NCBI GenBank assembly: GCA_016706425.1
Contig: JADJJR010000001.1
Span: 385,728-449,727, forward strand
Reading direction: 5' to 3'
Source of the DNA: Elusimicrobiota bacterium
Lineage (GTDB): Bacteria; Elusimicrobiota; Elusimicrobia; FEN-1173
DNA: 64,000 nt
The notes under the pieces were generated by a model. The model worked only from the letters and a program-made list of their open reading frames with translations, was not told where the DNA came from and did not search any database. The translations under genes were made by a program, and so were the position numbers. The first letter of the stretch is position 1. Each line of letters begins with the position of its first letter. Shown here one piece after another: positions 42,401-58,773 of this stretch.

Positions 42401-45400
42401 CCACGCCCGGTTCCTCGGTCGGGACGGCGGGACCGCCGGGGGGGACGCCGCGCCGATGTCGCTGACGCTGGCGGCCGCCGCGCCCCGCGTCGCGCCGACG
42501 GATCTGCGCGCGTTGATTAAAGAAGCGGTCGGCGCCCCGGCGTCCGTTTCGACGGCGCGGGCGCGCCGGCTCGGGGTTCCCGCGGACGAATGGTCGCGAT
42601 GGCTCGATCAATTGAAATCCCGGGGCTTGCTCACGGGCGACGGCGCGGGACCGTCCACGGCCCGGCCGCGGGGCGGAGCGGGGCGGCTGACCCTGTGGGT
42701 GTTGGCGGCGGGGTTGGGTCTGCTTTGGATGGCCTTCGGCCCCTTCCCCATCGGGGCTGCGGAATGGCACCAAACCGTTTTTTCGGCGGCCGGCGTCCTC
42801 CCGTGGTTGGCGCTCGGCACGAACCGCCCGGTTCCCCCGGACCGCCGCCGACCGGTCGAACAGGCCCCCCTCGGTCGCGTCGCCGCCGTCAACCTGATGG
42901 ACGCGGGCAGCCGCATCGAAGGCGACGGCTTCACGACCGCGCGCGGGTTGGCCAAGGTCGCGCGGTTGTTCCCCACCCTGGCCCGCCGGGGGTTCACGCA
43001 GGTTTACCTTTACAACGGCCTCTACGCGATGAGCGCGTTGGGGGACATGATCCACCGCGACGGCGGCGCGTCGCCGCGGTTGGTGAAATCCGGGCCCGCC
43101 CAGGTTCGGGTCGAAGGTTACACTCCCAAGCGGATGGAACGCGACGGTCTCGTCTACCGGGACCACGGCAACAATTTCTCCATCGCCAGCATGGACCGTC
43201 TGAACCCCGCGGTCGTGGACGGGGTCACCAACGAAGAACGCTGGGCGCGGTTCGCCGAGGCGGTGGCGGCGGCGCGGCGCGCCGGGTTGGGCGTGGTGGT
43301 CGACTTCAACCCGTGGATCTCCCCCGACGCGTTGACGCCGGAGACCGCGCGCTGGGCCGAGGAGGTCCGGCCGGTTGTTGGCGCGGACCGCGACCGGTCG
43401 GACGAAGAATTGCTGGCACAACCCGACAACGCGGAATTTGCCCTGCTCACCTTCGGCGCCGAACGGCTTTTGGTGAAAAATTGTTTCCCCGGCAAAGACC
43501 AAATGAAACCGAACCCCCGCCACCCCGACTACGCCGCCTACCTGGACCGGAGCCTGCGGCGGTTGATCGACGCCGGGGTGACGGGCGTCCGCGTCGATAT
43601 GGCGGGGGACTTGACGGTGTCCCAGGTCGGCGTGGATTGGGAGTTTTGGGGCCGTTTGATCGAGGACGCCCGTCGTTACGCCGAATCGAAAGGGCAAAAA
43701 ATCCACTTCATCATGGAGGCGTTCAAAGACAATTGGCCCGAACGGTTCCTGGACCGCTACCCGGACAATTACGTCTACCACGCCGCGCCTTTTCACATTT
43801 TCCGCGCGCTCGCGAAGGGGGACCGGGCCGCCCTTCCCGAATTGCGCCGCGACTTGGACGACATCTTGAGCCGCCGCCGGGGGCAATACGTCGTTTACCC
43901 GACCAATTTCGACGAGCCGTCTCTCCGGGCCATGGGGGGGCCGACCGCGGCTTTCGTGGCGATGTTGCTGACTTACGAGCGGCTTGGCCTGCCTCTGTTG
44001 CTGGATCTGCGGGAATTGATGGGAGAGGAAGGGCAGAATATCCCCCAGGCCGGCGGCGAAACGCGAGACGAAGCGGGCCGGTTTCAGCACCCCTTTTCCA
44101 ACCCGGCCCGTCGCGATTGGCGGGAATTCCGCCGGCGGTTGGAACGGGAAGATCCCCTGGGCGTCGGGCCCTGGGTCGCCGAGCTCGCCGCCGCCGACCG
44201 GGTGGAGGTGTTGGACACCTCCGACCCGACGCGTTATTTCGCCGTTCGACTGACGTGGGAGAACGGCGAAGAAGTCGTTCGGGTGTTCGATTTTTTCCCC
44301 GAGGACCCGACCGAGGAAAAAGACGTTCCGCTCCCCGCAAACCCGCCGAATATTCCTTCATTCCGCACCGCCATGGTCAACCTCATGGACGTGGGCAGCC
44401 ATTTGCGCGCCGCCAAAATGGCCACGGACCGGGGGCTGGCCAAGGCCACCCGCCTTTTGCCCTTCCTCGCCGAGATCGGCATGAACGACATTTACATCCA
44501 CAACGGGCTCTATGAACCCAGCGCCGCGGGCGTCGTGGTCCACACCGAAAGCACCGCGGCCCCGAACCTGCTCCGGTTCGGCCCCGCGACCGTTTTCGTC
44601 CAGGACTACACCCCCAAGCGCATGACCGTCACGGTCGATGGCCGGTCCATCGAATTGGGCGATGATTTCGGGAACAACTACGCCGTGGACGACATGAACC
44701 GTTTGAACCCCGCGGTCGTGGACGGCGACACCAACGAAGACCGTTGGTCGTCCCTGGCTTCCTTCACGGCGGCCGCCCGTCAAAAGGGCCTGACCGTGAC
44801 CGTCGACCTCGTCCCCTGGTTGACGCCCCTCAACGTGACCTTCGACCGCCTTGGGTGGGCGAAGGAGGTCGTCAAGGTGGAGGGCGAACGGGCGGCGCTC
44901 TCGGACCGGGCCCTCCTTGAGGCGAACCGGGACCACGTTTTGTTGACGTTTCCCGAAGGCCGGTTTTTGGTTCGGCGGTACATGGGGGTGGACCAGATCG
45001 CTCCCGATTTCACCCACCCGCAATATTTCTCCTATTTGGAATCGCATCTCCGTCGGTTGATCGACGCCGGGGTGTCCCGGGTCCGGGTGGACATGGCCCA
45101 CGACCTCATCGATCCCGCCCGGGATCCGCAATGGGACCTTTGGACCAAGTTGATCAACGGGGCCAAGGCCCACGCCGCGCGGCGGGGGCTATCGTTCCAT
45201 TTCCTGATGGAAGCCTACGGCCCCTGGGCCGTAGAATTCCTGCGGCGCTTTCCGGAGGAACAGGTTTACCATGTCGATCCCCACCACAATTACCGCCGGG
45301 TGGCGGCGGGCAACGACCCCCGCGCCTTGCCGGACCTGTTGGCCGCCTTGAATTACGCCCGGGACGTCCAAAAAGGGCGGTTCGTCGCGTTCCCGACGAA

Positions 45401-47174
45401 CTTTGACATGCCGTCCCTGGCGAACATCGGCGGCCCCACGGAGACGTTCCTCAAGTTGCTCCTCGTCTATGAACGCTTGGGCGTGCCTCTGATGGTGGAC
45501 CTGCGGGAATTGTTGGGCGAAGAGGGGCAGAACATTCCCCAGGCGGGAGGCCAGGAGATCGTCAACGGAAATTTTGGCCATCCGTTCTTGCGGACACCGC
45601 GCCGGGGGTACCGGGGTCTCCTGCGGCTGATCGGCGCGCGTCCGTCCCCGGCGGCGGTCATTCGGGATTGGCGCGAAACCCTGCGCAACGCCGCCTCGGT
45701 CGAAATCTTGGAGTCCAACGACCCCGCGCGGTTCGTCACGGTGCGGATCACCAACCAAGAGGGGTGGCAGCGCATCGAGGATTTGGATTTCAACCCCCAG
45801 GCCGGGCCGCCCGTGAACGACCGTTGGGTCCGTTGGAGCGCCGGCACGGCCCGGGCCGCCGCTCTCCTGGCCCCCGCCGTGGGCGTTCTGTTGATCGGCG
45901 CGTTGACCCCCGGCGCCGCCTGGGCCGTCGACGCCGCCTCCGGAGCGACGGGAGTCCTCGAGATCGTCGGTTGGACCGCTTTGGCCTGGGTCGCTTTGTC
46001 GGTGGTGGTCGTGTCGCTCGTGGCCCGCGCGGTGGGTCGCGGCAAGCGGGGGGAATGGGTCGAGTCGGTCCAGGTGAGCCCGTTGCCCTGGGGGAAAATC
46101 GTTCGGACGCTTCTGCGGGGCGCGGCCTGGGTTCATGACGAGCGGTCGTCGCTTCGCTTTCTCGGCCGGGCCGCCGAGGTGATCCGAACGGTGGGGCCGG
46201 AGGGCCTCAGCGCGGCCGAGCGGCGCGAGGTCCATTTCGCGGTTCAGGATTTGCGGGACCTTTTTTCTGGGAAAATGGTGCGCGGGAAGGCCCTGGAGGA
46301 GTTCCACAAAACCTTCGTTCGCCCGGGCGCCCCCGCGACGCCGGCTTGGTTGGAACCCGCCGCCGGCCGGGACGGCGCCATTTTGTCCGCCGCGGTGTGG
46401 GGCTCGCCCATCAATTTTGAAACGGCGTTCCGGCTGGAGGAGCGGAATTTGGCCTTCAAGCTCAACGAATTCCTTCCCTTTGAGGGCCCGTTGGACGTCC
46501 AAAGCGTTGACGGGCGTTCGCGCGGTCACGAATTCCTCACACGGCTGGCCCCGGCCCTGGCTCGAAGCGATTACCGTCGGCCCTTTGAAGCCGCGCTTCG
46601 AAAGACGCCGCCCTTCGAGCGGGGCCCGCTTCCCCCCTGGGAGGTGGTGTTGCACCGCCTCCGCCAAATGGCCCTCGGTGAATCGACTTTGAGCGCGCTC
46701 CCCCCGGGCGCCCCGGCCCAATTGGAGATTTGCAACTGGAACGACCGGGAAACCGTCCGCGACACCGTGGAACGGGTGCGGGCTATTAACCGCGGGGCCG
46801 ACACCCCGGTGCGGCTCATCCTGGCGGGGTCCGACGAATCCACCCGGGAGCGGTTGAACCGGTGGGCCGGGACGGATCCGTGGATCGCCGTGCTCGATCG
46901 GCCGGTGGCGCCCGCGGGGTCCTTGGACCTGAACGCCTTGGGCGAGAGCTACGCGCGCCTGATCGCCCGGCCGGACTGGGACAGGCCGTTGTCCCTGGCG
47001 GTCAGCGCCTCGGAGGGTTTGATCCAAAATGTGGGCACGGCCGCCGCGGCCGTCGCGGCTCTGCCCGCCGCCCTTGGGGAAGCCCTGCGTCGGTTCATGG
47101 AGGCCATGCCGCTCCGCCCCGTGGATTTTAACAGCCAAATCCAAGTTCTCCAAATTCTCGCCCAAAACGCTTAA
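33456..47174 (+). CDS. Giant 4572-aa multidomain membrane protein (HAD hydrolase, 4-alpha-glucanotransferase GH77, Ig/CBM-like, HATPase-like, GNAT, two GH13-like domains)
   Basis: Single uninterrupted frame with recognisable motifs along its length: DFDLTLW/IGDAPSD, RLDHVLG/WETLG/LHD, ARGQGVG/YRRLGF, RVDMA/MEA/TNFD twice. Confidence 0.85.
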   Translation: MFSPIVYRKTTAFCLSVAYALSNVVFVHSAESRFWADRQRARRSDQSDPRGWLAQAGPAALPNAALPRVAAVEPGAAARSAREERLPERLSPDHRRWLAAVPAARASLRRVTLPPQAPRGLVIHLQDVHHHVEAQKNLGGTVDALLAAGGRRSPWVALEGAFGPVDLSVPRAFPDPAALAAAAEEMLLQNEISGPIQALLTRAGPAPLVLGIDDPAHYAANVEAYRRAHPRLAAEKERLSRARAALEDEKAKTGNTALLDFDRRARAYHGGATRLGAFARSLAPLPKGRHPALAHFLDTLAMEDAIDFARVEAERGRVLERLARSLSPEDTARLVAQGVAYRSGELSAADFYLSLDELCQKAGVALSGTPAFADYLRYVLHAHRIDAEALFEDLRVREEAVVEGLLSTPVERRLWEESGRLALEEKLADFSLTPEEWAGLAAKGPARSAVLAYAERFYVEAQSRDEAMAAGMLKKLADAPEALLVTGGYHARGLTERLTRAGYAVASVVPKLTNIEGPQGAAYLAVFAEEKTPLDRLFEGPKLFLAAPPASDESLARTELTAGAVAVGGEPDGALPGPVRDHLKRTFTVIDGGRKGGVSSVRVRHRGRTIVASFDPTKPGGRKARWGLVGRARPTREDFRRWTGRIGSRARNLLRGAWGAPPSVAVVSPAAVRRLDPRAVFIDFDLTLWAGYPFDPQANLFVDRLFNGDPAKRAPMARFLKRISGLGEADKLAALRNDRALGFPPMDAAAWTAVYREVRALIKARIESNFDPRLVPGAMELLQAVKASGRPVFVLTGGNAAECRARAERLGLAPFLDGYFGDGDKAARLAEALKKENLAPHQALMIGDAPSDMEAARSQGVLGVGLALEPADDVLLKEAGAGVLVRRAFNDPGALLGVLKLETPPTVFPARAGMRTAVGTYAPLFQIRSDRDWGIGDFGTAARTAELHRALGLTLLQIEPLNMSSAGNSPYSVASSRAIEPNRIDVEAAVARFAPQGETAAWVAAAEIQRRIAALRASPRVRYAEVDALKREALSRLWAEVKDTPAVRAALAEFRGANEAWLTDHLLYVVLKRRFLAEPPGAAAGPMWDWRNWPAGLRDRDRGALRRARIDNREALAFETFLQFLAADQRRRFVDQSRRLGVEVMLDIPFALDGADLWIHPEVFGLKKSDGYRRSVTQGVPPESAYPAGQYWQFYPFDWSNPASADFIDELLRFNQRWASCVRLDHVLGYYRSYLFSEDARGRLTLESLGLYRALRELQERGRAAGDDVKRAAVDEARRLLLEKFQRLDRGTPVEDNSLPAVLRGRLFGADGALTPDAALIVARSADGTPPGGSWNRQYVVEKAVFEDRPWWDFLRLTPRSDGGDGGFLWEYLFGSGGDVRPTDSLRPAAFVRAPGEEILSRLLATAQANGTQLVWETLGTVPPGVPESVRRLGGTDYLPVIYGENPGSLYHPTRHTANAYVTMGLHDSTTLRHRWENEWSEADRRHLWGLMRPDRAPPEDLRSFTPDVRDGLIALVMKSPARIAALTWTDLLGLGEEHRINAPGVQDGQWTGRWPFTVEEMGRVLATNDADHPAHGALTALPRLVAEGGRHRGAAPPTGLLRTDPETDGVMVQIRPFGQPFVIDAYVNRPGGVPRWRVQDPEGRTLADLPLKGGDSVGSLVGGTPPGVTRWRTEWRAPRPGDYTFTVEIDGATSAPGRLRAVPVGTDLNPLSPGYGQHKPSLLARLGRGVVSLLVVLSLGVGSSFPVDAREERIFAEQGWTVLGAEDSGPGARAIRTPAGAFTELKILKGKVQVGSIKGNGYFRLTPPDTVWGTSFVTPGYWADGRQHITLITDATYSTDEEGRLTVKGRLDSPHVSANDWTWTFRPSDPSGGVETGLAFTLKANREFALDPDRADSGEAMKIAQFSSMNIGSDWDADGVTAGDRSGSLARADARVFDWPVPLGRGQEVVLANDGLSRPRQTPTTFFRVDKSPGPLLVQGWVTRSNDPNDDNVGVWLAWDGRGQTRFRPGDVIGGPVELIAGARPPGDPPTLPPASGFSSIDEASFRRAQKSVESMGEFLRDYFAARGFAPRAEHVLRGIAEHYTAPRAPHRPYADLAAEFTPGRLDSMVKAGELRRLPPGGSWIPPDWEWKGRPIGRWYAVYVAGALEGAGVLALAAKGFPLLLAALAPGLGDSLVFDVLRTVTAGGGAWALFRYLHWPLNRDALSNASVVKLGAAMFLAGVLAGFPWWEPLAGNILFGALLAFVSIEHYRENFKIFSEVKPATGGAEESPVPRVRPRDPMEVLRGLTETAPPGWGSWQILRGKDSVVLHAYVEAFGREPVNQFEMKVRLGAVDDWGGTWNRVQEFSMTDPLKGAYWRNGEAFFSTRLQVPPGKYEYEFLLRKYPTGPWIKEKGKTRVHRLLADPGGARFALRQKFVPIRQGQGTTWQARRLSDRLGAGFVNAEPERGAKIILHALKDIVYYAVENTQQHGRPGAEAFVDAWVEGDALFVEVVNPSDLPLPAELDGEYSVTSPNPPVPKEKRGPGSRRGEAVARVRSLVNKVYSDAAVASVLAPRARWSWRREPATGAVVFRLSIPLPEVGKAALAPSAPFGAEEVEIAPLTPESARRFEADLLAMERGRPGGWRTLSRFLEEKRAATGTPLEGKWEFSFLAVVKGRAVGYLIGVRPNADKPYAREDLALRGLPVSKGLVVFRAGVLDSARGQGVGRRLWRAAAEAAEAAGIDYIYQDARVDNTRARDLYRRLGFVDIAGFNDSSKDIDYMAMVARTRDLRSSTGGRAPGIASQVLGLSGLVFMAEALERYLSWMGGLLWMAPPGATGPPAALIARAVESARSVDRAMSTGGYDRLTGLAGDLKAALLNLGKGPAGLRSLLENTLETAELAVAQLGPEVARRSLDAPRVSFLFVAAETALLANDAPAAAKALDALESIRPGLLFKEAQYHGTLRWALAVVRNEPDAAARFQSAVAHRFVDGLLGWTEESFHARFLGRDGGTAGGDAAPMSLTLAAAAPRVAPTDLRALIKEAVGAPASVSTARARRLGVPADEWSRWLDQLKSRGLLTGDGAGPSTARPRGGAGRLTLWVLAAGLGLLWMAFGPFPIGAAEWHQTVFSAAGVLPWLALGTNRPVPPDRRRPVEQAPLGRVAAVNLMDAGSRIEGDGFTTARGLAKVARLFPTLARRGFTQVYLYNGLYAMSALGDMIHRDGGASPRLVKSGPAQVRVEGYTPKRMERDGLVYRDHGNNFSIASMDRLNPAVVDGVTNEERWARFAEAVAAARRAGLGVVVDFNPWISPDALTPETARWAEEVRPVVGADRDRSDEELLAQPDNAEFALLTFGAERLLVKNCFPGKDQMKPNPRHPDYAAYLDRSLRRLIDAGVTGVRVDMAGDLTVSQVGVDWEFWGRLIEDARRYAESKGQKIHFIMEAFKDNWPERFLDRYPDNYVYHAAPFHIFRALAKGDRAALPELRRDLDDILSRRRGQYVVYPTNFDEPSLRAMGGPTAAFVAMLLTYERLGLPLLLDLRELMGEEGQNIPQAGGETRDEAGRFQHPFSNPARRDWREFRRRLEREDPLGVGPWVAELAAADRVEVLDTSDPTRYFAVRLTWENGEEVVRVFDFFPEDPTEEKDVPLPANPPNIPSFRTAMVNLMDVGSHLRAAKMATDRGLAKATRLLPFLAEIGMNDIYIHNGLYEPSAAGVVVHTESTAAPNLLRFGPATVFVQDYTPKRMTVTVDGRSIELGDDFGNNYAVDDMNRLNPAVVDGDTNEDRWSSLASFTAAARQKGLTVTVDLVPWLTPLNVTFDRLGWAKEVVKVEGERAALSDRALLEANRDHVLLTFPEGRFLVRRYMGVDQIAPDFTHPQYFSYLESHLRRLIDAGVSRVRVDMAHDLIDPARDPQWDLWTKLINGAKAHAARRGLSFHFLMEAYGPWAVEFLRRFPEEQVYHVDPHHNYRRVAAGNDPRALPDLLAALNYARDVQKGRFVAFPTNFDMPSLANIGGPTETFLKLLLVYERLGVPLMVDLRELLGEEGQNIPQAGGQEIVNGNFGHPFLRTPRRGYRGLLRLIGARPSPAAVIRDWRETLRNAASVEILESNDPARFVTVRITNQEGWQRIEDLDFNPQAGPPVNDRWVRWSAGTARAAALLAPAVGVLLIGALTPGAAWAVDAASGATGVLEIVGWTALAWVALSVVVVSLVARAVGRGKRGEWVESVQVSPLPWGKIVRTLLRGAAWVHDERSSLRFLGRAAEVIRTVGPEGLSAAERREVHFAVQDLRDLFSGKMVRGKALEEFHKTFVRPGAPATPAWLEPAAGRDGAILSAAVWGSPINFETAFRLEERNLAFKLNEFLPFEGPLDVQSVDGRSRGHEFLTRLAPALARSDYRRPFEAALRKTPPFERGPLPPWEVVLHRLRQMALGESTLSALPPGAPAQLEICNWNDRETVRDTVERVRAINRGADTPVRLILAGSDESTRERLNRWAGTDPWIAVLDRPVAPAGSLDLNALGESYARLIARPDWDRPLSLAVSASEGLIQNVGTAAAAVAALPAALGEALRRFMEAMPLRPVDFNSQIQVLQILAQNA

Positions 47175-49177: not shown

Positions 49178-50302
49178 ATGAAACGGATCTCAGCGGTGAT
49201 TCTGTCTTTCTTTGTCGTGTCGGCCGGGGCTCATCCCGTCGATCCCCGGCCCGATCGGCCCCTGGTGCAATTGGCTCTTTTGCTCGACACGTCCAACAGC
49301 ATGGACGGGTTGATCGACCAGGCCAAATCCCAGCTCTGGCGCATCGTGAACGACCTGGCCGGCTCCCGTTGCCGGGGGCACGCGCCCCGCATCGAAGTCG
49401 CGCTTTACGAATACGGCAATTCCGGCCTCTCGGCGGGGGAAAAATACCTGCGGCAGGTCTTGCCCTTCACCCGCGACCTGGACCGGGTGTCCGAGATGTT
49501 GTTCGGCCTGCGGACCAACGGGGGCGAAGAGTATTGCGGGGCGGTGATCAAGGACGCCGTCAAAAACCTTCAATGGGACGGCCGCGCGTCGACCTACAAA
49601 ACCCTCTTCATCGCCGGCAACGAACCCTTCACCCAGGGGGATGTGAACTTCCGCGACGCCGTCCAAAAGGCCGTGGACAGGGGCGTGGTCGTCAACACGA
49701 TCTTCTGCGGCGACCGACGCGAGGGCCTTGAAACCGGCTGGCGGGACGGGGCCGACCGCGGGCGGGGGGCGTTCCTGACCATCAACCAGGACCGGGACAT
49801 CGTGGTGCGGCGCAGTCCCTACGACGACGAGATCGAACGACTGGGTCGGTTGTTCAACGACACCTTCGTCTATTTCGGCGCCCGGGCGGAAGAAACGGCC
49901 GCGCGGCAAAGCCGGGCCGACGCCGCGGCCCTCAAGGCCGCGCCGGCCGGGGCTTCCGTGGAGCGTTCGCTTTTCAAATCCAAACGGCAGTACAGCGAGT
50001 CCCTGGCGGCGGAAGACGCCGTGAGCGCCGTGGTCAGCGGTCGAATGAAAGCCGTCGAGCTCGAGGCCAAAGACCTGCCGGCCGAAATGCGCGGAAAGGA
50101 CGCGAAGGAACTGGAGGGCGCGTTGAAGGCCAAACAGGCCGAACGAGAAAAGATTCAATCGGAATTGGACGCGCTGGGTAAGAAACGGGAAAAATTCCTG
50201 GCCGAGAAACCCGCGGACGCCAAAGACACCCTCGACCGAGCGATCCTCGACGCCGTCCGGGAACAGGCCCGGGGCCTGGGGTACGCCTTCGACAGCAAGT
50301 GA
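49178..50302 (+). CDS. Secreted von Willebrand factor A domain protein
   Basis: Signal peptide, MIDAS LDTSNSMDG, TNGGEEYCG, FIAGNEPF, helical C-terminus. Confidence 0.85.
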   Translation: MKRISAVILSFFVVSAGAHPVDPRPDRPLVQLALLLDTSNSMDGLIDQAKSQLWRIVNDLAGSRCRGHAPRIEVALYEYGNSGLSAGEKYLRQVLPFTRDLDRVSEMLFGLRTNGGEEYCGAVIKDAVKNLQWDGRASTYKTLFIAGNEPFTQGDVNFRDAVQKAVDRGVVVNTIFCGDRREGLETGWRDGADRGRGAFLTINQDRDIVVRRSPYDDEIERLGRLFNDTFVYFGARAEETAARQSRADAAALKAAPAGASVERSLFKSKRQYSESLAAEDAVSAVVSGRMKAVELEAKDLPAEMRGKDAKELEGALKAKQAEREKIQSELDALGKKREKFLAEKPADAKDTLDRAILDAVREQARGLGYAFDSK

Positions 50303-50312
50303 GGCAATAAAC

Positions 50313-50347
50313 AAAAGGGGCGCGGGCCGTGGGCCCGCGCCCCTTTT
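50313..50347. terminator. Bidirectional intrinsic terminator
   Basis: AAAAGGGGCGCGGGCC-GTG-GGCCCGCGCCCCTTTT perfect 16-bp inverted repeat between convergent genes. Confidence 0.9.
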
Positions 50348-51037
50348 TTATTTGGGATCGGCGAAGCGGTGGCGGATGTCTTTGCCCTGGACCATAAAGA
50401 TGACGTCCTCGGCGATGTTGGTGGCGTGGTCGCCGATGCGTTCCATGTTCTTGGCCAGCAGGATCAAGTCCACGAATTGGGTGGAATGGGTCGGGTCTTT
50501 CTTGATCAAATCGATCAGGCTGGTGATCGCCTCGGCCTTGAGTTTGTCCTCTTCCTCGTCCTGGGGGAAGACGCCCTGGGCCAGATTTACGTCGCCCCGG
50601 GAGAAAGCGTCCAGGGCCTCGCGCAGCATTTTTTGGGAGATCTCCGCCATGCGGAAGACCAGGCTCACCTGGGGCACGGGTGTTTCCTTGAAGAGGTGGT
50701 AATAACAGGTCTGTGAGGCGTTCACGGCCTGGTCGGCGATCCGCTCCAAATCCGAATTGATTTTCATGGCCGCGGTGATGAGGCGCAGGTCCGCCGCCAT
50801 GGGTTGGTGCAGGGCGATGAGCTTCAGGCAGCGGTCGTCGACCTCCACGTGCATGTGGTTGACCTGCTCCTCCAGGGTAAACACCTCCTGGGTGAGCTTT
50901 TCGTTCCGTTCGCGCAGGGCGCGAACGGCCTTCTGGATCATGTCCTCGGCGGTGGCGCCCATGCGGAGCAGGAGCTCCTTGAGGCGGTTGAGTTCTTCGT
51001 CGAAATGGCGTTCCACGGGGTTCTCCTTTTTATCCAA
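50348..51037 (-). CDS. phoU: Phosphate signalling protein PhoU
   Basis: [33 protein letters not shown]. Confidence 0.96.
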
Positions 51038-51860
51038 AACGGCCGGTGATGTATTGTTCGGTGCGCGGGTCCTGGGGGCTGGTGAAGATCTGCCCCGTCG
51101 GGCCGTATTCCACCAGGTCGCCCAGGAGGAAATAGGCCGTGCGCGAGGAAACGCGCGCGGCCTGTTGCATGTTGTGCGTCACGATCACGATGGCGTAGCG
51201 TTGTTTGAGGTCGATGATCATCTCCTCGATGCGCTGGGTCGCCAACGGGTCGAGGGCGGAGCAGGGCTCGTCCATGAGAAGGACTTCGGGCTCCACCGCC
51301 AACAAACGGGAAATGCACAACCGTTGCTGTTGCTCGGGGGAAAGCGCGAGGGCCGGGGCGTCGAGGCGGTCCTTCACCTCGTCCCACAACCCCGTGGACC
51401 TCAGGCATTTCTCCACCAGTTCCCGCAGCCCCGCGCCCTGCACGGCGTGGTGGACCCGGGGCCCGTAGGCCACGTTTTCGAAAACGCTGATGGGGAAGGG
51501 GTTGGGCCGCTGGAACACCATACCCACGCGTTTGCGCAGGCCGATGAGGTCGGCCTTGGGCGCGTAAATGTTCTTGCCGCGCAGAAGGACTTCGCCCTCG
51601 ACGCGCGCGCCGTTGATTAAATCGTTCAGACGGTTCAGCGTTCGCAAAAGGGTCGATTTGCCGCAACCCGACGGACCGATGAAGGCCGTGATCGCCCGGT
51701 CCGGAATCGCGATGTGAATGTTTTGGAGGGCCTGGAAGTTGCCGTAAAAAAAGTTTAAATCCCGCGTCTCCAACACCGGGGTCTCGGTGGGCGCGTTCTG
51801 GGCCGCCGCGGGACGGTCCGGGGTTTTCTCGGGGGTTTTAACCAAAACGTCCGGAGACAT
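51030..51860 (-). CDS. pstB: Phosphate ABC ATPase PstB (signature degenerate, LSPEQ)
   Basis: [47 protein letters not shown]. Confidence 0.94.
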
Positions 51861-52599
51861 AGTCGGCCGTCCTTTGTTCTTTGGGGCTGGTGAAAATTTG
51901 CCCGGTTTCGCCTTCTTCGATCAGTTGGCCCATCAGTAAAAAAGCCGTCCGGTCCGAGGTGCGCGACGCCTGTTTGACGTTGTTGGTCACCAGCACGATG
52001 GACATTTTTTCCTTGAGACCTTTCAAGGCCTCTTCGATCTTGGCGGTGGAGATGGGGTCCAGGCCCGAGCAGGGTTCGTCCAGAAGCAGGATGTCCGGCG
52101 CGAGCATGAGGCTGCGCGCGAGGCAAAGACGTTGTTGTTGGCCTCCCGACAGTTCCAAGGCCGACGCGCCCAGCCGGTCTTTGACCTCATCCCAAAGGAA
52201 GGCGGCGCGCAGGCTTTCCTCCACGCGGCCCCGGGGCGTTTGGGCCCCCTGAAAGCGAAGGCCCAGGCGCAAATTGTCTTCAATGGACATGGGCAAGGGC
52301 GTTGGCACGGCGAACATCATGCTGATCCGCCGTCGCAGCGACGCCACGTCGGTTTTGGGGTCCAAAAGGTCACGGTCGTCCAAAAGAATTTCGCCCCGCA
52401 CCTCCAGGTTGTCCTCCAGGTCGGTGAGCCGGTTGAGGCACCGCAACAGCGTGGTTTTGCCGCCGCCGGCCGGGCCGATGATGGCGAGGATCTCGTTTTG
52501 AGACACGTCCAACGACACGTCGTTCAAGAGGGTTTTGCCCCCCGCCCGGACGGTGAGGTTCCGCACCCGGATTTTTTCGGCGGCGCCCAGGCGGCTCAT
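51838..52599 (-). CDS. pstB: Phosphate ABC ATPase PstB paralog (Q-loop and H-switch degenerate)
   Basis: ATG at 52599. [47 protein letters not shown]. Confidence 0.9.
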
Positions 52600-53501
52600 C
52601 GTTGGATCCTCCGGCGGATGCGCGAGCGGATGATGATGGCGGTGAAATTGAGGCCGAAGGTCAACAGCAGCAGCACGAGCACCGTGGCGTAGAGGATGGG
52701 CAGGGTGGCGTCCACGTCCGGTGATTGGGTGGCCATGACGTAGACGTGATAGCCCAGCTCCATGAATTGGTGGTTGAGCCGCGTGGGCAGGTACGGGAGG
52801 AAGTAGGCCGCCCCGGTGAAAAGGATCGGCGCCACCTCGCCGGCGCCGCGGCTGATGGCCAGGATCGTTCCCGTCAAGATGCCGCCCACCGCCTGGGGCA
52901 GCAGGACGAACCGCACCATCTGCCAACGGGTGGCGCCCAGGGAATAGGCCACTTCCCGGTGGCTTCGCGGCACCACCCGCAGGGCCTCCTCGGTGGCGAC
53001 CACGACCGTCGGTAAAGTGAGGAGCGCCAAGGTCAACGCCGCCCAAAGAATGGCGGGTTGGCCGAAGTAGAGCTTGTTGTCAAAGAAGAATTTGTCGAGA
53101 CCCCGACCGACGAAATTGATGAAGAAGCCGAGCCCGAACAGGCCGAAAACGATCGCCGGCACGCCGGCGAGGTTTTGAATGGCCATCCGCACCAGGGGCA
53201 CCCAGCGGGATTTTTTGGGCGCGTATTCCTGCAGATAGATGGCCGTCGACACGCCCAGGGGCACCACGGCGATGGTCATGAGGATCACCAGAAAAGCCGT
53301 GCCGAAAATAGCGGGGAAAATGCCGCCTTCCGTCATGCCGGACCGCGGCGCCGTCGAAAGGAAATCCCAATTGATGTGGCCGACGCCGTGGATCACGACG
53401 TTCCCCAGGATCAGGACCACCGCGAGGGTCAAGATCAGGCAGGCCAAACCCGTTAAGGCCTTGAAAAAAACGCTGGTGAGGTCGATCCAGCGGCGTTTCA
53501 T
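52596..53501 (-). CDS. pstA: Phosphate ABC permease PstA
   Basis: GGIFPAIFGT, LAGVPAIVFGLFG, EEALRVVP, GEVAPILFT. Confidence 0.95.
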   Translation of the reverse strand: MKRRWIDLTSVFFKALTGLACLILTLAVVLILGNVVIHGVGHINWDFLSTAPRSGMTEGGIFPAIFGTAFLVILMTIAVVPLGVSTAIYLQEYAPKKSRWVPLVRMAIQNLAGVPAIVFGLFGLGFFINFVGRGLDKFFFDNKLYFGQPAILWAALTLALLTLPTVVVATEEALRVVPRSHREVAYSLGATRWQMVRFVLLPQAVGGILTGTILAISRGAGEVAPILFTGAAYFLPYLPTRLNHQFMELGYHVYVMATQSPDVDATLPILYATVLVLLLLTFGLNFTAIIIRSRIRRRIQR

Positions 53502-54436
53502 TGTTCCCCCGTGAGCTTTTTACGGAACCGACCGACCCACATTTGGCCGGCGAGATTGATTAAAAAAGTGAAGACAAAGAGCAAAACCCCAATGAAGAAA
53601 AGCACGTGGTAATGGGGGCTGCCCGATACGACTTCGCCCAGTTCCGAGGCGATGGTGGCCGAGAGGCTGCGGAACCCGTACCCCAGATGCCAACTCGGGA
53701 TGGCCTGGTTGCCCGAGGCCATGAGGACGATCATCGTCTCCCCGATGGCGCGGCCGAAGCCCAGAATGCCCGCGGCGAAGATGCCGGGAAAGGCGGCGGG
53801 GAACACCACCCGGCGGGCCGTTTGCCAGGGGGTGGCGCCCAGGGCCACCGAGCCCTGCCGGTAGCTTTGGGGAACGGCCGTCAGGGCGTCCTCGGCGACG
53901 GTGAACACGATCGGGATGACCGCCAGGCCGAGGGCGATGCCGGCGTTGATGGTGTTGAGGCGGTAGTCCAAACCGAACAGGTCCTGAACGGCGGTGGCCA
54001 TCACGAGCAGGGCGAAAAACCCGAGCACCACCGAGGGAATGCCCGCCAGGAGTTCGATGACGGGTTTCACGATTTCCTTGAGCCAGGGGGGCGCGAACTC
54101 CGAGGTGAAGACCGCCGCCCCCAGGGCCAGGGGGAAGGCGAAGGCCAACGCCACAAAGGTGACTTTGAGAGTCCCGATGATGAGGGGCCAAAAGGAATAT
54201 TTGGGAATTTCCGACACCGGTTGCCACATGTGCCCGGCGGGCTCGCCAGGTTCCGGGACCTGCGCCAGGAACAACTTAGACAGGCCCGCCTCCGCGCGGG
54301 CCTCCGGCGAGGTGAAAAGGGGCACGGCTTCTTTCCCGATAAAGACGAAGATGAGGACCAAACCCACGATGGCGATGGCGGCGCTGGCGTGGATCAATCC
54401 CTCGATGATCCGCTCCGAGAGTTTTTTCTGAATCAT
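53498..54436 (-). CDS. pstC: Phosphate ABC permease PstC
   Basis: ELLAGIPSVVLG, EDALTAVP, GRAIGETMIV. Confidence 0.95.
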   Translation of the reverse strand: MIQKKLSERIIEGLIHASAAIAIVGLVLIFVFIGKEAVPLFTSPEARAEAGLSKLFLAQVPEPGEPAGHMWQPVSEIPKYSFWPLIIGTLKVTFVALAFAFPLALGAAVFTSEFAPPWLKEIVKPVIELLAGIPSVVLGFFALLVMATAVQDLFGLDYRLNTINAGIALGLAVIPIVFTVAEDALTAVPQSYRQGSVALGATPWQTARRVVFPAAFPGIFAAGILGFGRAIGETMIVLMASGNQAIPSWHLGYGFRSLSATIASELGEVVSGSPHYHVLFFIGVLLFVFTFLINLAGQMWVGRFRKKLTGEQ

Positions 54437-55284
54437 TTCTTTTTCCCCGCGATGGGATAAAACCCCACCTTGGCCACGATGGCCTGGCCTTCGGGGCTCA
54501 AGGCGAAATCGATGAAATCCTTGATGGGGCCTGCGGGGTCCCCGCGCAAGTAGTAATACAGGTCGCGACTGACCGGGTAGGTACCGTCCAAAATGTGTTT
54601 TTCATCGGGGAGGATGGCCGGCCGGGCGGGATCCGCCTGGAGCGCGGCGAACTTGATGCCCTTGGCGTAGGCGGCGCCGCCGAAGCCGATGCCACGCTTG
54701 TCCCGGGCGACGGCGTTGGCCACCGAGGCCGTTCCGGGCAGGCACTGGGCGAAGGGGGTGAAATCCTTTTTCTTCAACACGTGTTCTTTGAAGAATTCGT
54801 AGGTCCCCGAATTGTTTTCCCTGGAATAAAGGATGATTTTTTGGTCCGGCCCGCCCAGGTCTTTCCAATTGGTGATCTTGCCGCGGTACACCAGGGCCAC
54901 CTGCTCGGTGGTGAGCGCGGAAAGGGGGTTGGCGCTGTTGAGATAGACCGCGATGCCGTCCTTGGCGACGGCGATTTCCACGGGGTCGCGCCCGGTCTTG
55001 GCCTTGAGGGCGACCCGCTCCTTTTCTTTCATGGGGCGGGAGGAAGCGCAGATGTCCGTCGATCCCGCAAGCAGGGAGGCGATCCCGGTGCCCGATCCAC
55101 CCCCCGTCACCTGAACGATGGCTTTTCCGTGGGTGGCCATGTACCGTTCCGCCCAGCGCTGATTGAGGATGACCAGGGTGTCGGACCCTTTGATGGTGAC
55201 GGTTTCCGCCGCCCGGTTCGGTCGGGGCGAGGCGAGGGACAGGAGAATCCCGCAAAGGACGGCGAATGTTCGGGCGGTCGGCAT
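54433..55284 (-). CDS. pstS: Phosphate-binding protein PstS
   Basis: IKGSDT, GGGSGTG, SSRPMK, RENNSGTYEFF. Confidence 0.95.
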   Translation of the reverse strand: MPTARTFAVLCGILLSLASPRPNRAAETVTIKGSDTLVILNQRWAERYMATHGKAIVQVTGGGSGTGIASLLAGSTDICASSRPMKEKERVALKAKTGRDPVEIAVAKDGIAVYLNSANPLSALTTEQVALVYRGKITNWKDLGGPDQKIILYSRENNSGTYEFFKEHVLKKKDFTPFAQCLPGTASVANAVARDKRGIGFGGAAYAKGIKFAALQADPARPAILPDEKHILDGTYPVSRDLYYYLRGDPAGPIKDFIDFALSPEGQAIVAKVGFYPIAGKKK

Positions 55285-55626: not shown

Positions 55627-56193
55627 ATGAGATGCCCCGCGTGTGATCATCCGGAAGACCGCGTCATCGACAGCCGACCGTTGGAGTCGGCCTCGGTGAT
55701 CCGTCGGCGCCGTCTGTGCCTGCACTGCAGCAAGCGCTTCACCACCTACGAGCGGGTCGAATCGACCCCGTTGATGGTCATCAAGCGCGACAACCGCCGG
55801 GAGCCCTTCAGCCGCGACAAGATGCGCGAAGGCATCGTCCGCGCCTGCCGCAAGAGGCCCGTGTCCCCCGCCGTCATCGAGAAGCTGGTCTCGGAAGTGG
55901 AATACAGCCTGCAAGACTACGTGCTGGAAGTGCCCACCGCGGAAATCGGGGAACGCATCCTCAAGCGGCTCTACGACATCGACACCGTGGCCTATGTGCG
56001 ATTTGCTTCCGTCTACCGCTCCTTCGGCGACATCGACTCCTTCCTGACGGAAATCAAGCGGCTGAAGCAGGCCCACCGCCGACGCGTGACGCTCGGCGCG
56101 GCCCGCCTCGCCGTCCCGAAAGACCCGATGTTGAAATCACCCGCGTCGGGGGATGCCCTTTTGCCGGACGCCGCCCAGCCGGCGACGGTCTAA
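55627..56193 (+). CDS. nrdR: Transcriptional repressor NrdR
   Basis: MRCPAC...DSR...IRRRRLC..C.KRFTTYE, ATP cone, VAYVRFASVY. Confidence 0.97.
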   Translation: MRCPACDHPEDRVIDSRPLESASVIRRRRLCLHCSKRFTTYERVESTPLMVIKRDNRREPFSRDKMREGIVRACRKRPVSPAVIEKLVSEVEYSLQDYVLEVPTAEIGERILKRLYDIDTVAYVRFASVYRSFGDIDSFLTEIKRLKQAHRRRVTLGAARLAVPKDPMLKSPASGDALLPDAAQPATV

Positions 56194-56202
56194 CGAATCG
56201 TC

Positions 56203-58773
56203 TTGAAGAAGGATGGAGGAACGCCCATGAACCCCGTTGACGCCCCTGCTCGCCCGTCGGAAAAATCGCGCGCCCGCCCGGCCCTGCGCCTGTCGGAAAA
56301 CCAGCGCAAAGTCATCACCGACAAATATCTTCGCACCGACCCTTCGCCCGAGGTGTGGTTGGAACGGGTCGCCGCCAACATCGCCCTGGGCGAACTCCTC
56401 CACGCCCCCGAGGCGGACGGCTGGCACCTCTGGGACGGCGTCAAGCGCAAGACCGTCGAGGCCCACACCCGCAAGGGCCAAAAAAGCCGCATGACGCTTC
56501 TCCACCACGGCCTGGCCACGTCCGATGAGCGGGACAAAAACTTTTTCGTCTATCTGGACAACCTGCGCAAGGCCGCCGCGGAGATCCCCGAGGCCCGCGA
56601 TCTGGCCGAGGCCTGGCGGGACAAGTTCTACGCCATGATGGCGCGGTTCGACTTCCTGCCCAATTCCCCCACCCTCATGAACGCCGGCCGCGACCTCCAG
56701 CAGTTGTCGGCTTGCTACGTGCTGCCCGTGCCGGACAGCATGGAGGGCATCGCCGACGCCGTCAAAGCCCAGGCGCTCATCCACAAGTCCGGCGGCGGCA
56801 CCGGGTTCTCCTTTCAGCGGCTGCGCCCCTCCGGGGACAACGTCAAGTCCACCAAAGGCACGGCTTCCGGCGCCATCAGCTTCATGCAGATCTTCGACAA
56901 GATGACCGACGTCGTCAAGCAGGGCGGCGCCCGCCGCGGCGCCAACATGGGGATCCTCCCCTATTGGCACCCGGAGATCGAAGACTTCATCACCATGAAG
57001 GACAAGCCCGGCGTCATGGAAAACTTCAACGTGTCCGTCACCGTGGACGAAAAATTCATGAACGCGGTGGAAAAGGGCGAGGAGTACGACCTGCTCAACC
57101 CCCGCACCCTCCAGCCCACCGGCAAGCGGCTCAACGCCCGCGACGTCTTCGAAAAAATGGTCGACGGCGCCTGGCGCACCGGCGACCCCGGCATCATCTT
57201 CATCGACCGGATCAACAACTCCGCCTCGAACCCCACGCCGCAACTGGGGCAGATCGAAAGCACGAACCCCTGCGGCGAACAACCGCTTCTCCCCAACGAG
57301 CCCTGCAACCTGGGGTCCATCAACCTCTCCAATTTCGTGGAGGGGGAGGTCACCCTGGGGCAAATGAACTGGGACCGGTTGGCCGAAACCGTGGCCCTGT
57401 GCGTGCGGTTCCTCGACAACGTCATCGAAGTCAACAACTACCCCCTGGCCCAAATCGAAGAGCTGTCCAAGGGCAACCGCCGCATCGGGTTGGGCGTCAT
57501 GGGGTGGGCCGAAGCCCTCGTTAAAATGGGCGTGGCCTACGACTCCGAGGAATGCCTGGCGCTTTCCACCAAGGTCATGGGGTTCATCAACGAGAAAGCC
57601 CTGGAGGCTTCCGAGGCCCTGGCCGAGGAACGCGGCGCCTTCCCCAACTGGAAAGGCTCCATCTTCGATCCGGAGAGCCCGCACTTCCGCGGCGAGGCCC
57701 GCCTGCCGCGCCATTGCGCCCGCACGACCATCGCCCCCACCGGCACCATCGGGCTGGCCGCCGGCCTGCAGGGCGCGGGCATCGAGCCCTTCTTCGCCAT
57801 CGCCTACACGCGCTACAACGCGAGGGCGCTGGACGCCCTCAAAAAAGGCGAGAAGCCCAACGAAGCCGACGTCTTCCACGAAGTCAACCCGCTCTTCCGC
57901 GAAGTCGCCCGCCGGAACAATTACTTCGGCATGGCGGAGAACGAGCTCTGGAAAAAAGTCGAAGGCAACCACAAATCGGCCCGCGGCGTCAAAGAGATTC
58001 CGGAAAAATTCCAGAAACTCTTCGCCTCGAGCCACGACGTGGCGGTCCCCTTCCACGTGCAGATCCAGGCGGCGTTCCAGACCCACACCGACAACGCCGT
58101 CTCCAAGACGATCAACATGCCCAACTCCGCCACCCGCGAGGACGTGAAGGCCGCCTACTGGCAGGCCTACAAGGCCGGCTGCAAAGGCACCACGATCTAC
58201 CGGGACGGCTCCAAGAGCCAGCAGGTGCTGAACCTGGGAACGGGCGGCGCCGCCGCGCCGAAACCCAAGGCCCGCGACACGGCCCGGGGCATGTCCTCCG
58301 AGTACTACGAGATCCGCACGGGCCACGGCGGGCTGCACATCCACATCGACTACGACGAAACGGGCCCCTACCGCCTCTTCACGAGCCTTTCGCCCCTGGG
58401 GACGGACATCTCGGGTTTGACCTCGGTGGTGGGGATCATGATCTCCAAGTACCTCGAGGCCGGCGGGGATCCGAAGCGGATCCTGAAACACCTCAACTCC
58501 GTCAAGGGCGACCGCCCCTTCGGCTTCGGCGCCCAACGGGTGGACTCGATCCCGCACGCCATCGCCATCGCGTTGCGAACCCACTTGCAAAAGCACGGCC
58601 AGATGGAGACGCCCCCCGCGGCGCCGGCCGGCGAGGAGGCGAAGGGCGGCTTGGAATTGTGGAACCGTTCCGCCGCGCTCTATTGCCCGGATTGCTTCTC
58701 CTCCAACGTGGCCCAGCAGAGCGGCTGCACCGGCGTGACCTGCTTCGACTGCGGGCACTCGGAGTGCTCGTAA
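56203..58773 (+). CDS. nrdJ: Class II (adenosylcobalamin-dependent) ribonucleotide reductase
   Basis: FLPNSPTLMNAG, LSACYV, GGGTG, STNPCGEQPL, RRIGLGVMG, TIAPTGTI, AVSKTIN, YRDGSK, C-terminal Cys cluster. Confidence 0.95.
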   Translation: MKKDGGTPMNPVDAPARPSEKSRARPALRLSENQRKVITDKYLRTDPSPEVWLERVAANIALGELLHAPEADGWHLWDGVKRKTVEAHTRKGQKSRMTLLHHGLATSDERDKNFFVYLDNLRKAAAEIPEARDLAEAWRDKFYAMMARFDFLPNSPTLMNAGRDLQQLSACYVLPVPDSMEGIADAVKAQALIHKSGGGTGFSFQRLRPSGDNVKSTKGTASGAISFMQIFDKMTDVVKQGGARRGANMGILPYWHPEIEDFITMKDKPGVMENFNVSVTVDEKFMNAVEKGEEYDLLNPRTLQPTGKRLNARDVFEKMVDGAWRTGDPGIIFIDRINNSASNPTPQLGQIESTNPCGEQPLLPNEPCNLGSINLSNFVEGEVTLGQMNWDRLAETVALCVRFLDNVIEVNNYPLAQIEELSKGNRRIGLGVMGWAEALVKMGVAYDSEECLALSTKVMGFINEKALEASEALAEERGAFPNWKGSIFDPESPHFRGEARLPRHCARTTIAPTGTIGLAAGLQGAGIEPFFAIAYTRYNARALDALKKGEKPNEADVFHEVNPLFREVARRNNYFGMAENELWKKVEGNHKSARGVKEIPEKFQKLFASSHDVAVPFHVQIQAAFQTHTDNAVSKTINMPNSATREDVKAAYWQAYKAGCKGTTIYRDGSKSQQVLNLGTGGAAAPKPKARDTARGMSSEYYEIRTGHGGLHIHIDYDETGPYRLFTSLSPLGTDISGLTSVVGIMISKYLEAGGDPKRILKHLNSVKGDRPFGFGAQRVDSIPHAIAIALRTHLQKHGQMETPPAAPAGEEAKGGLELWNRSAALYCPDCFSSNVAQQSGCTGVTCFDCGHSECS

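Follow-up and report, generated by a model that had tools for sequence, protein, structure and literature searches.

Bacteria take up phosphate at high affinity mainly through the Pst importer, which also serves the Pho regulon as its sensor, and both textbooks and structural work assume that its ATPase is made of two identical PstB subunits. The locus described here raises the question of how such a transporter would work when its operon encodes two different PstB proteins, from both of which the full catalytic motif set of an ATP-binding cassette (ABC) ATPase is absent. It lies in a window of 64,000 nucleotides (nt) from an Elusimicrobiota bacterium (assembly GCA_016706425.1, contig JADJJR010000001.1, positions 385,728 to 449,727 of the forward strand), whose first letter is position 1 of the window coordinates given below. 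On the minus strand, from 55284 to 50348, six translationally coupled genes in the order pstS-pstC-pstA-pstB(N)-pstB(E)-phoU are followed by an apparent terminator. The two PstB proteins are 48% identical and are named here for the residues that set them apart: the N-type, PstB(N), has an Asn in its H-switch and the E-type, PstB(E), a Glu in its signature motif. Gene families were assigned with NCBIfam models and their curated bit-score cut-offs, and the operon reads as follows.

54433..55284, minus strand: pstS, periplasmic phosphate-binding protein, 283 amino acids (aa); TIGR02136, 223 bits against a cut-off of 206.6
53498..54436, minus strand: pstC, permease, 312 aa; TIGR02138, 244.4 bits against 196.45; shares 4 nt at its start with the end of pstS
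52596..53501, minus strand: pstA, permease, 301 aa; TIGR00974, 246 bits against 193.45; overlaps pstC by 4 nt
51838..52599, minus strand: pstB(N), the N-type PstB (P0001), 253 aa; TIGR00972, 309.7 bits against 343.2; its ATG overlaps the pstA stop (ATGA)
51030..51860, minus strand: pstB(E), the E-type PstB (P0002), 276 aa; TIGR00972, 374.4 bits against 343.2; overlaps pstB(N) by 23 nt
50348..51037, minus strand: phoU, 229 aa; TIGR02135, 206 bits against 130.25; overlaps pstB(E) by 8 nt
50313..50347, unstranded: 16-base-pair GC-rich hairpin between A/T runs, directly 3' of the phoU stop

The setting is that of a pstSCAB-phoU operon: pstS, pstC, pstA and phoU each exceed the cut-off of their model, and they lie translationally coupled on the same strand. 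Two non-identical nucleotide-binding domains (NBDs) are encoded together within it. The gene overlaps of 4, 4, 4, 23 and 8 nt, taken in order along the operon, and the one hairpin behind them, which looks like a bidirectional terminator, fit a 1:1 production of the two PstB proteins, and the 23-nt overlap between the pstB genes is also kept in a relative. PstB(E) passes the TIGR00972 equivalog cut-off for PstB. PstB(N) falls below it, yet TIGR00972 is its best family by far, the next family reaching 229 bits; it is a divergent PstB paralog and not an equivalog by the NCBI threshold.

Each of the two proteins departs from the consensus in a different set of motifs. The translation of PstB(N) retains Walker A (GPAGGGKT), Walker B (ILLLDEP) and the signature LSGGQ, and its alignment to Escherichia coli PstB (PDB 9k3x, E = 4e-72) places Ala97 at the position of the Q-loop Gln (MMFAVP) and Asn206 at that of the switch His (VTNN). 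Column profiles drawn from 198 PstB sequences extend this list. The aromatic residue of the A-loop, Tyr20 in E. coli PstB, is lost to Ala19, 23 residues before Walker A, in a column that is Tyr in 87% and Phe in 10% of canonical PstBs, Tyr in 100% of E-type proteins, and Ala in 47%, Phe in 21% and Tyr in 9% of the N-type. The D-loop reads SGLD, with Gly (98% of the N-type) where 92% of canonical PstBs have Ala (SALD), and three residues past the switch a near-invariant Lys (Lys209; 95% of the N-type) stands in place of Gln. PstB(E) is canonical in Walker A (GPSGCGKS), Q-loop (MVFQRP), Walker B (VLLMDEP), D-loop (SALD) and H-switch (VTHN), and its sole non-canonical motif is the signature LSPEQ. 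The Glu at signature position 4 occurs in 100% of the 36 E-type proteins of the tree set, a class that is itself defined by that Glu, and the Pro at position 3 in 78% of E-type proteins. The initial annotation of this DNA had read the two proteins in the same way, with VFQ and VTHN kept beside LSPEQ in the one and LSGGQ kept beside MFAV and VTNN in the other; translation and alignment confirm that reading, and the SGLD D-loop and the A-loop loss are added to it here. The fold of the monomers is already settled by how far their sequences are identical to the solved PstB. The codons concerned are these.

52543..52545, minus strand: Ala19 of PstB(N), at the A-loop position (column profile)
52309..52311, minus strand: Ala97 of PstB(N) (gcc), at the position of the Q-loop Gln (alignment and homologs)
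51973..51984, minus strand: Asn206-Asn207-Val208-Lys209 of PstB(N), with the switch His changed to Asn and the Gln at +3 to Lys (column profile)
51333..51338, minus strand: Pro175-Glu176 of PstB(E), the third and fourth signature positions, where E. coli PstB has Gly156 and Gly157

How these departures combine depends on the geometry of the dimer. As is general in ABC proteins, ATP in the structure of E. coli PstSCAB is held between Walker A and Walker B of one PstB and the LSGGQ of its partner, and PstA and PstC each carry one of the two PstBs (PMC12976172). Mapped onto this architecture, a first composite site (site I) joins the canonical cis motifs of PstB(E) to the canonical LSGGQ of PstB(N), and a second (site II) joins the cis motifs of PstB(N), without A-loop Tyr, Q-loop Gln and switch His, to the LSPEQ of PstB(E). 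All of the deviations fall in this one composite site, except for the SGLD D-loop of PstB(N), which reaches towards the consensus site. The mapping bears out the earlier proposal that a heterodimer would have one canonical and one degenerate site and that neither homodimer would be canonical. We consider it likely, from the arrangement of the motifs, that PstB(N) and PstB(E) form an obligate heterodimer in which a single catalytic site powers the PstC/PstA channel.

If the two proteins complete each other in this way, the same motif states should recur together in relatives, and co-variation of the substitutions in tandem pstB pairs had been set beforehand as the test. The Q-loop Gln is missing from 119/119 of the closest homologs of PstB(N), down to 58% identity, and is replaced by Ala in 91, Ser in 27 and Pro in 1; all 119 have the switch Asn together with an intact LSGGQ, and none has lost the Lys of Walker A or the Asp-Glu of Walker B, while the D-loop is SGLD in 118. 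Among the 120 closest homologs of PstB(E), Glu is found at signature position 4 in 116, and Q-loop Gln and switch His are both kept in 119. Of the 40 relatives in the same class, 18 carry two pstB genes in tandem, and in 18/18 the N-type lies upstream and the E-type downstream, while every lone pstB in this set is fully canonical. The N-type carriers sampled from other classes of the phylum have an E-type gene in 20/20 genomes, directly downstream in 17 and on a different contig in 3. The asymmetry is therefore conserved in orthologous pairs, within the class, across classes and, as described below, in other phyla, so that the co-variation expected beforehand was found. The motif states shared by nearly all of the closest homologs, set beside canonical single-copy PstBs, show that the pattern is not due to chance, and the retention of the PstB(N) signature in 100% and of the PstB(E) cis motifs in nearly 100% of sequences fits a scheme in which each protein completes the other.

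In the three genomes with the genes on different contigs (L141, L142 and L138 with L127, L129 and L136, in G076, G140 and G051), the pairing survives the loss of adjacency; what comes after the N-type gene in G076 is an unrelated gene of 390 aa. Elsewhere the order pstA, N-type, E-type, phoU is conserved in relatives together with the coupled translation. By an estimate from identity values, about 75 of the 251 genomes of the phylum have an N-type-like match among the matches listed. In the genomes of approximately 1 megabase that belong to one genus, PstB is matched by the N-type and the E-type gene and by no other, and the pair must therefore suffice for Pst function there.

Outside the phylum we relied on a scan whose query was the N-type alignment and one of whose two search patterns, GGQQQRLC, is common to all PstBs, so that the matches listed are mostly canonical and only about 10 of 80 loci are informative. 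Among them are three loci with complete N/E pairs, the records of which bear the labels Acidobacteriota and Planctomycetota. A record labelled Desantisbacteria has an N-type gene where its contig ends; the source names of PstB(N) homologs also include Hydrogenedentes and Edwardsbacteria. Single-copy PstB loci were canonical in 67/67 among the matches listed. In a representative library clustered at 50% identity the N-type family takes up a handful of rows, which gives its diversity and no counts.

The same scan brought up milder versions of the pair (L042, L073, L093 and L110, in records labelled Anaerolineae, Bacillota and Syntrophobacteraceae), such pairs being present in records labelled Chloroflexota, Thermodesulfobacteriota and Bacillota. 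Here the upstream PstB lacks the Q-loop Gln and shows the SGLD D-loop, with the switch His kept (VPHN, VPHS or VTHN) and mostly Gln at the +3 position, and the signature of its downstream partner is LSLGQ, not LSPEQ, so that position 4 stays Gly. A mild defect upstream goes with a mild defect in the partner, and a strong one with a strong one, which extends the co-variation to this variant group as well. A quick tree had placed the variants as sisters of the N-type, and their LSLGQ partners as sisters of the E-type, which suggested a stepwise degeneration with the variants as intermediates; we do not claim this, as a careful tree, built without the motif columns, scattered the variants inside or near the N/E clades. 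The upstream variant proteins lie within the N-type super-clade, at an exact position that is unstable between trees, and the His-keeping/LSLGQ variants could be either intermediates or partial reversions.

That careful tree, computed with IQ-TREE from 89 sequences after removal of all motif columns, separates the two types on the remainder of their sequence. The N-type proteins and the His-keeping variants fall on one side of a branch with support of 99/99, and the E-type proteins form one clade (94/96). Distances among the N-type proteins correlate with those among their partners (r = 0.87 over 23 pairs; Mantel test, 0/5000 permutations), and PstB(N) evolves faster than PstB(E), with a mean distance of 0.41 against 0.35. 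In comparison with a syntenic relative of about 92% identity, the ratio of nonsynonymous to synonymous substitution rates (dN/dS) is 0.072 for each pstB gene and lies between 0.04 and 0.09 for pstS, pstC, pstA and phoU. Both pstB genes are under strong purifying selection and, as the distance correlation and the low dN/dS together indicate, the N-type and E-type genes are selected and inherited as a unit.

These observations suggest the following mechanism for the transporter. PstB(N) and PstB(E) would be the two halves of an obligate heterodimer seated on PstC/PstA, in which the consensus site would bind and hydrolyse ATP and so drive transport. In CFTR, the mutations G551D and G551E place an acidic side chain at signature position 4, where it repels ATP's gamma-phosphate and blocks the ATP-driven closure of the NBDs, while Ser or Lys is tolerated at the same position (PMC4178940). 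Glu176 of PstB(E) occupies this position, where the gamma-phosphate normally meets a backbone amide, and together with the motifs lost from PstB(N) this makes it probable that site II is non-hydrolytic and unable to close on ATP as a normal site does. Given that the switch His and the Q-loop Gln are gone, and given the G551E precedent, we infer that hydrolysis takes place mainly or only at the consensus site; heterodimerisation itself, the loss of hydrolysis at the degenerate site and the role of that site are likewise inferred from sequence. The degenerate site would then probably be catalytically dead, the importer would spend one ATP per cycle, and the second interface would provide a contact that is either fixed or regulatory. 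For the histidine importer, also of type I, one active site is reported to be enough, according to work cited in PMC3971661.

Some features of the locus and of the genome weigh against so simple a scheme. Many degenerate exporter sites have lost the catalytic Glu. PstB(N) keeps it, together with the Walker A Lys and the Walker B Asp, in 100% of sequences, which argues that some nucleotide-related function at site II is still selected; this site may still hydrolyse some ATP or have a role that depends on nucleotide. Furthermore, the same genome has a second operon, pstC, pstA, pstB, phoU, elsewhere on the chromosome (L002, G000:C1:710125-713868), the single PstB of which is fully canonical (GPSGCGKT, MVFQKA, LSGGQ, SALD, VTHN). 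With both operons in one genome, the organism would carry a homodimeric and a heterodimeric design side by side, the N/E pair is not demonstrably essential in this organism, and mixed assemblies with the canonical PstB may form. The N-terminus of the protein encoded beside this second operon resembles, by eye, a polyphosphate kinase.

The derived residues of the degenerate site itself allow a more elaborate account. In the core N/E pairs the invariant signature Glu of PstB(E), and the switch Asn and near-invariant Lys at +3 of PstB(N), are all derived, and the three could replace the contacts normally made by the gamma-phosphate of ATP. The pocket would in that case be a purpose-built regulatory latch and not an idle half-site, and the interface might be held shut, or might be sensitive to ADP or phosphate rather than to ATP. 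We regard this as unlikely; if true, the importer would have a built-in sensor of the cytoplasmic phosphate or energy state that feeds PhoU signalling.

The obligate heterodimer has also to be set against readings in which the two proteins do not share an ATP site at all. Each might instead pair with itself, giving two homodimers that divide tasks such as transport and signalling between them. An arrangement of this kind has been proposed for Enterococcus faecalis, where adjacent pstB1 and pstB2 have documented non-overlapping cellular functions (PMC12096839); the position of phoU directly downstream is also in keeping with this division, as PhoU interacts with PstB. Both E. faecalis proteins, however, are fully canonical, whereas an N/N dimer would be without Gln and His in both of its sites and an E/E dimer would have a repulsive Glu in both. 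The strict conservation of LSGGQ in the one protein and of the cis motifs in the other is hard to explain unless the two complete each other, and the N/E pair is the only PstB complement in the small genomes. On this evidence we judge separate homodimers to be improbable.

Alternatively, PstB(N) could be a non-catalytic regulatory pseudo-ATPase that acts off the transporter, leaving a PstB(E) homodimer to work alone. Its failure to reach the curated cut-off for PstB (309.7 bits, with 343.2 required), its faster evolution (0.41 against 0.35) and the loss of three nucleotide-handling residues would all suit such a role. In CFTR, however, ATP no longer drives closure when signature position 4 is acidic (PMC4178940), so that the E/E dimer on which this account depends should be inactive, and PstB(N) would have no need to keep its LSGGQ, both Walker motifs and the Asp of its D-loop invariant if it took no part in any ATP site. 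The conserved order of pstA, N-type, E-type and phoU, with its coupled translation, also speaks against it, and we hold the pseudo-ATPase to be quite improbable.

That the pair is a set of decaying duplicates under relaxed selection, with no special mechanism, is suggested by one relative of the same family (G013) in which both pstB genes are frameshifted while pstA, pstC and phoU are intact, but this reading is effectively refuted by the selection and conservation data, namely the dN/dS of 0.07 for both genes, the same substitutions fixed across classes and in other phyla, the well-supported N/E clades and the standing of the pair as the sole PstBs of reduced genomes. At the locus in question (L023, G013:C4:50064-53603) the N-terminal parts of both proteins lie in other frames, and a canonical pstB is present elsewhere in the genome; the double frameshift is either a joint pseudogenisation of the pair or a product of assembly errors. 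Among other irregular PstB proteins, P0277 (475 aa) has two PstB domains in one polypeptide, both with LSGGQ, and P0295 (384 aa) has a canonical PstB domain after a C-terminal PstB fragment; either may reflect a true fusion or an artefact of gene calling that runs two tandem genes together.

The proposed obligate heterodimer shares features with several described transporters and differs from each of them. In its operon logic, with pstS, pstC, pstA and pstB as well as phoU, it resembles E. coli PstSCAB (PDB 9k3x, 9k3y, 9k3s; PMC12976172), to the PstB of which PstB(N) is also highly similar in sequence. The E. coli transporter has two identical PstBs and two consensus sites, whereas here there are two paralogs, with changes in the A-loop, the Q-loop, the H-switch and two signature positions that all fall in one of the two sites. 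Tandem pstB genes in a pst-phoU operon are known from Firmicutes, as PstB1/PstB2 of E. faecalis OG1RF (PMC12096839) and PstBA/PstBB of Bacillus subtilis (PMC11466899), and a heteromeric NBD pair is assumed for them; the E. faecalis pair differs from the present one in that both proteins are canonical. A tandem pair in an Akkermansia record (L111) is canonical in both genes.

A parallel in design is offered by the heterodimeric exporters and channels, among them TM287/288, TAP1/2, TmrAB, BmrCD, PatAB and CFTR (PMC7756269, PMC3971661), in which two different NBDs likewise form one consensus site and one composite site that collects the deviations, in an arrangement that is conserved in evolution. 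In those proteins the NBDs are fused to the transmembrane domains, whereas the present system is a type I binding-protein-dependent importer with free-standing NBDs. The nature of the defect also differs: TM287 has Asp in place of the catalytic Walker B Glu (PMC3971661), which is retained here, and the residues affected here are the A-loop, the Q-loop, the switch His and an acidic signature residue. CFTR G551D/G551E shares with PstB(E) the acidic residue at signature position 4, but there it is a disease mutation that destroys function in the consensus site (PMC4178940), while here it is fixed, selected and placed in the degenerate site.

The initial annotation had described this kind of asymmetry as well known in heterodimeric exporters. 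It is indeed known from them, but exporters do not stand alone in this respect, since RbsA and NupO of B. subtilis (PMC11466899) are sugar/nucleoside importers with one of their two ATP sites off consensus: both are without the Lys of the second Walker A, and the Asp/Glu of the second Walker B is lost in NupO. In these proteins the two NBDs are fused in one polypeptide, and they belong to another transporter family that is unrelated to Pst. No description of a degenerate or asymmetric PstB site was found in the full-text literature, a search whose coverage leaves subscription journals largely outside, and within that literature there was no prior account of the pattern for this PstB clade.

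Around the pst operon, the window contains other genes of note. A 374-aa open reading frame (ORF) at 49178-50302 on the plus strand converges with phoU and shares the hairpin at 50313-50347 with the pst operon; it gave no Pfam match at E <= 1e-5. Divergent from pstS and upstream of it, at 55627-58773 on the plus strand, lie nrdR, with an ATP-cone and a zinc ribbon, and a large ribonucleotide reductase gene, a neighbourhood that is also present in the 92%-identical relative (L148). Farther away, at 33456-47174 on the plus strand, a giant ORF of 4572 aa has a HAD hydrolase domain (678-858), a GH77 4-alpha-glucanotransferase domain (923-1556) and a GNAT acetyltransferase domain (approximately 2650-2750), together with long segments without a Pfam match.

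Taken as a transporter, the N/E form of Pst is a conserved, multi-phylum and apparently undescribed variant of the Pst importer, in which a known principle, one consensus and one degenerate ATP site, would be applied to an importer with free-standing ATPase subunits. Its asymmetry is hidden by annotation, since both genes share generic source names ("phosphate ABC transporter ATP-binding protein" or "phosphate transport system ATP-binding protein") and PstB(N) lies below the NCBI equivalog threshold. If the heterodimer is real, it would be a natural case, widespread and strongly selected, of a type I binding-protein-dependent importer run by one catalytic site, and a clean system in which to ask whether the transport cycle needs two hydrolysis events and what purpose the second site serves. 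With each PstB on a different permease, the active site of the heterodimer would be tied to one of them, PstA or PstC, and this fixed orientation may bear on how the conformation of the transporter is reported to PhoU and PhoR.

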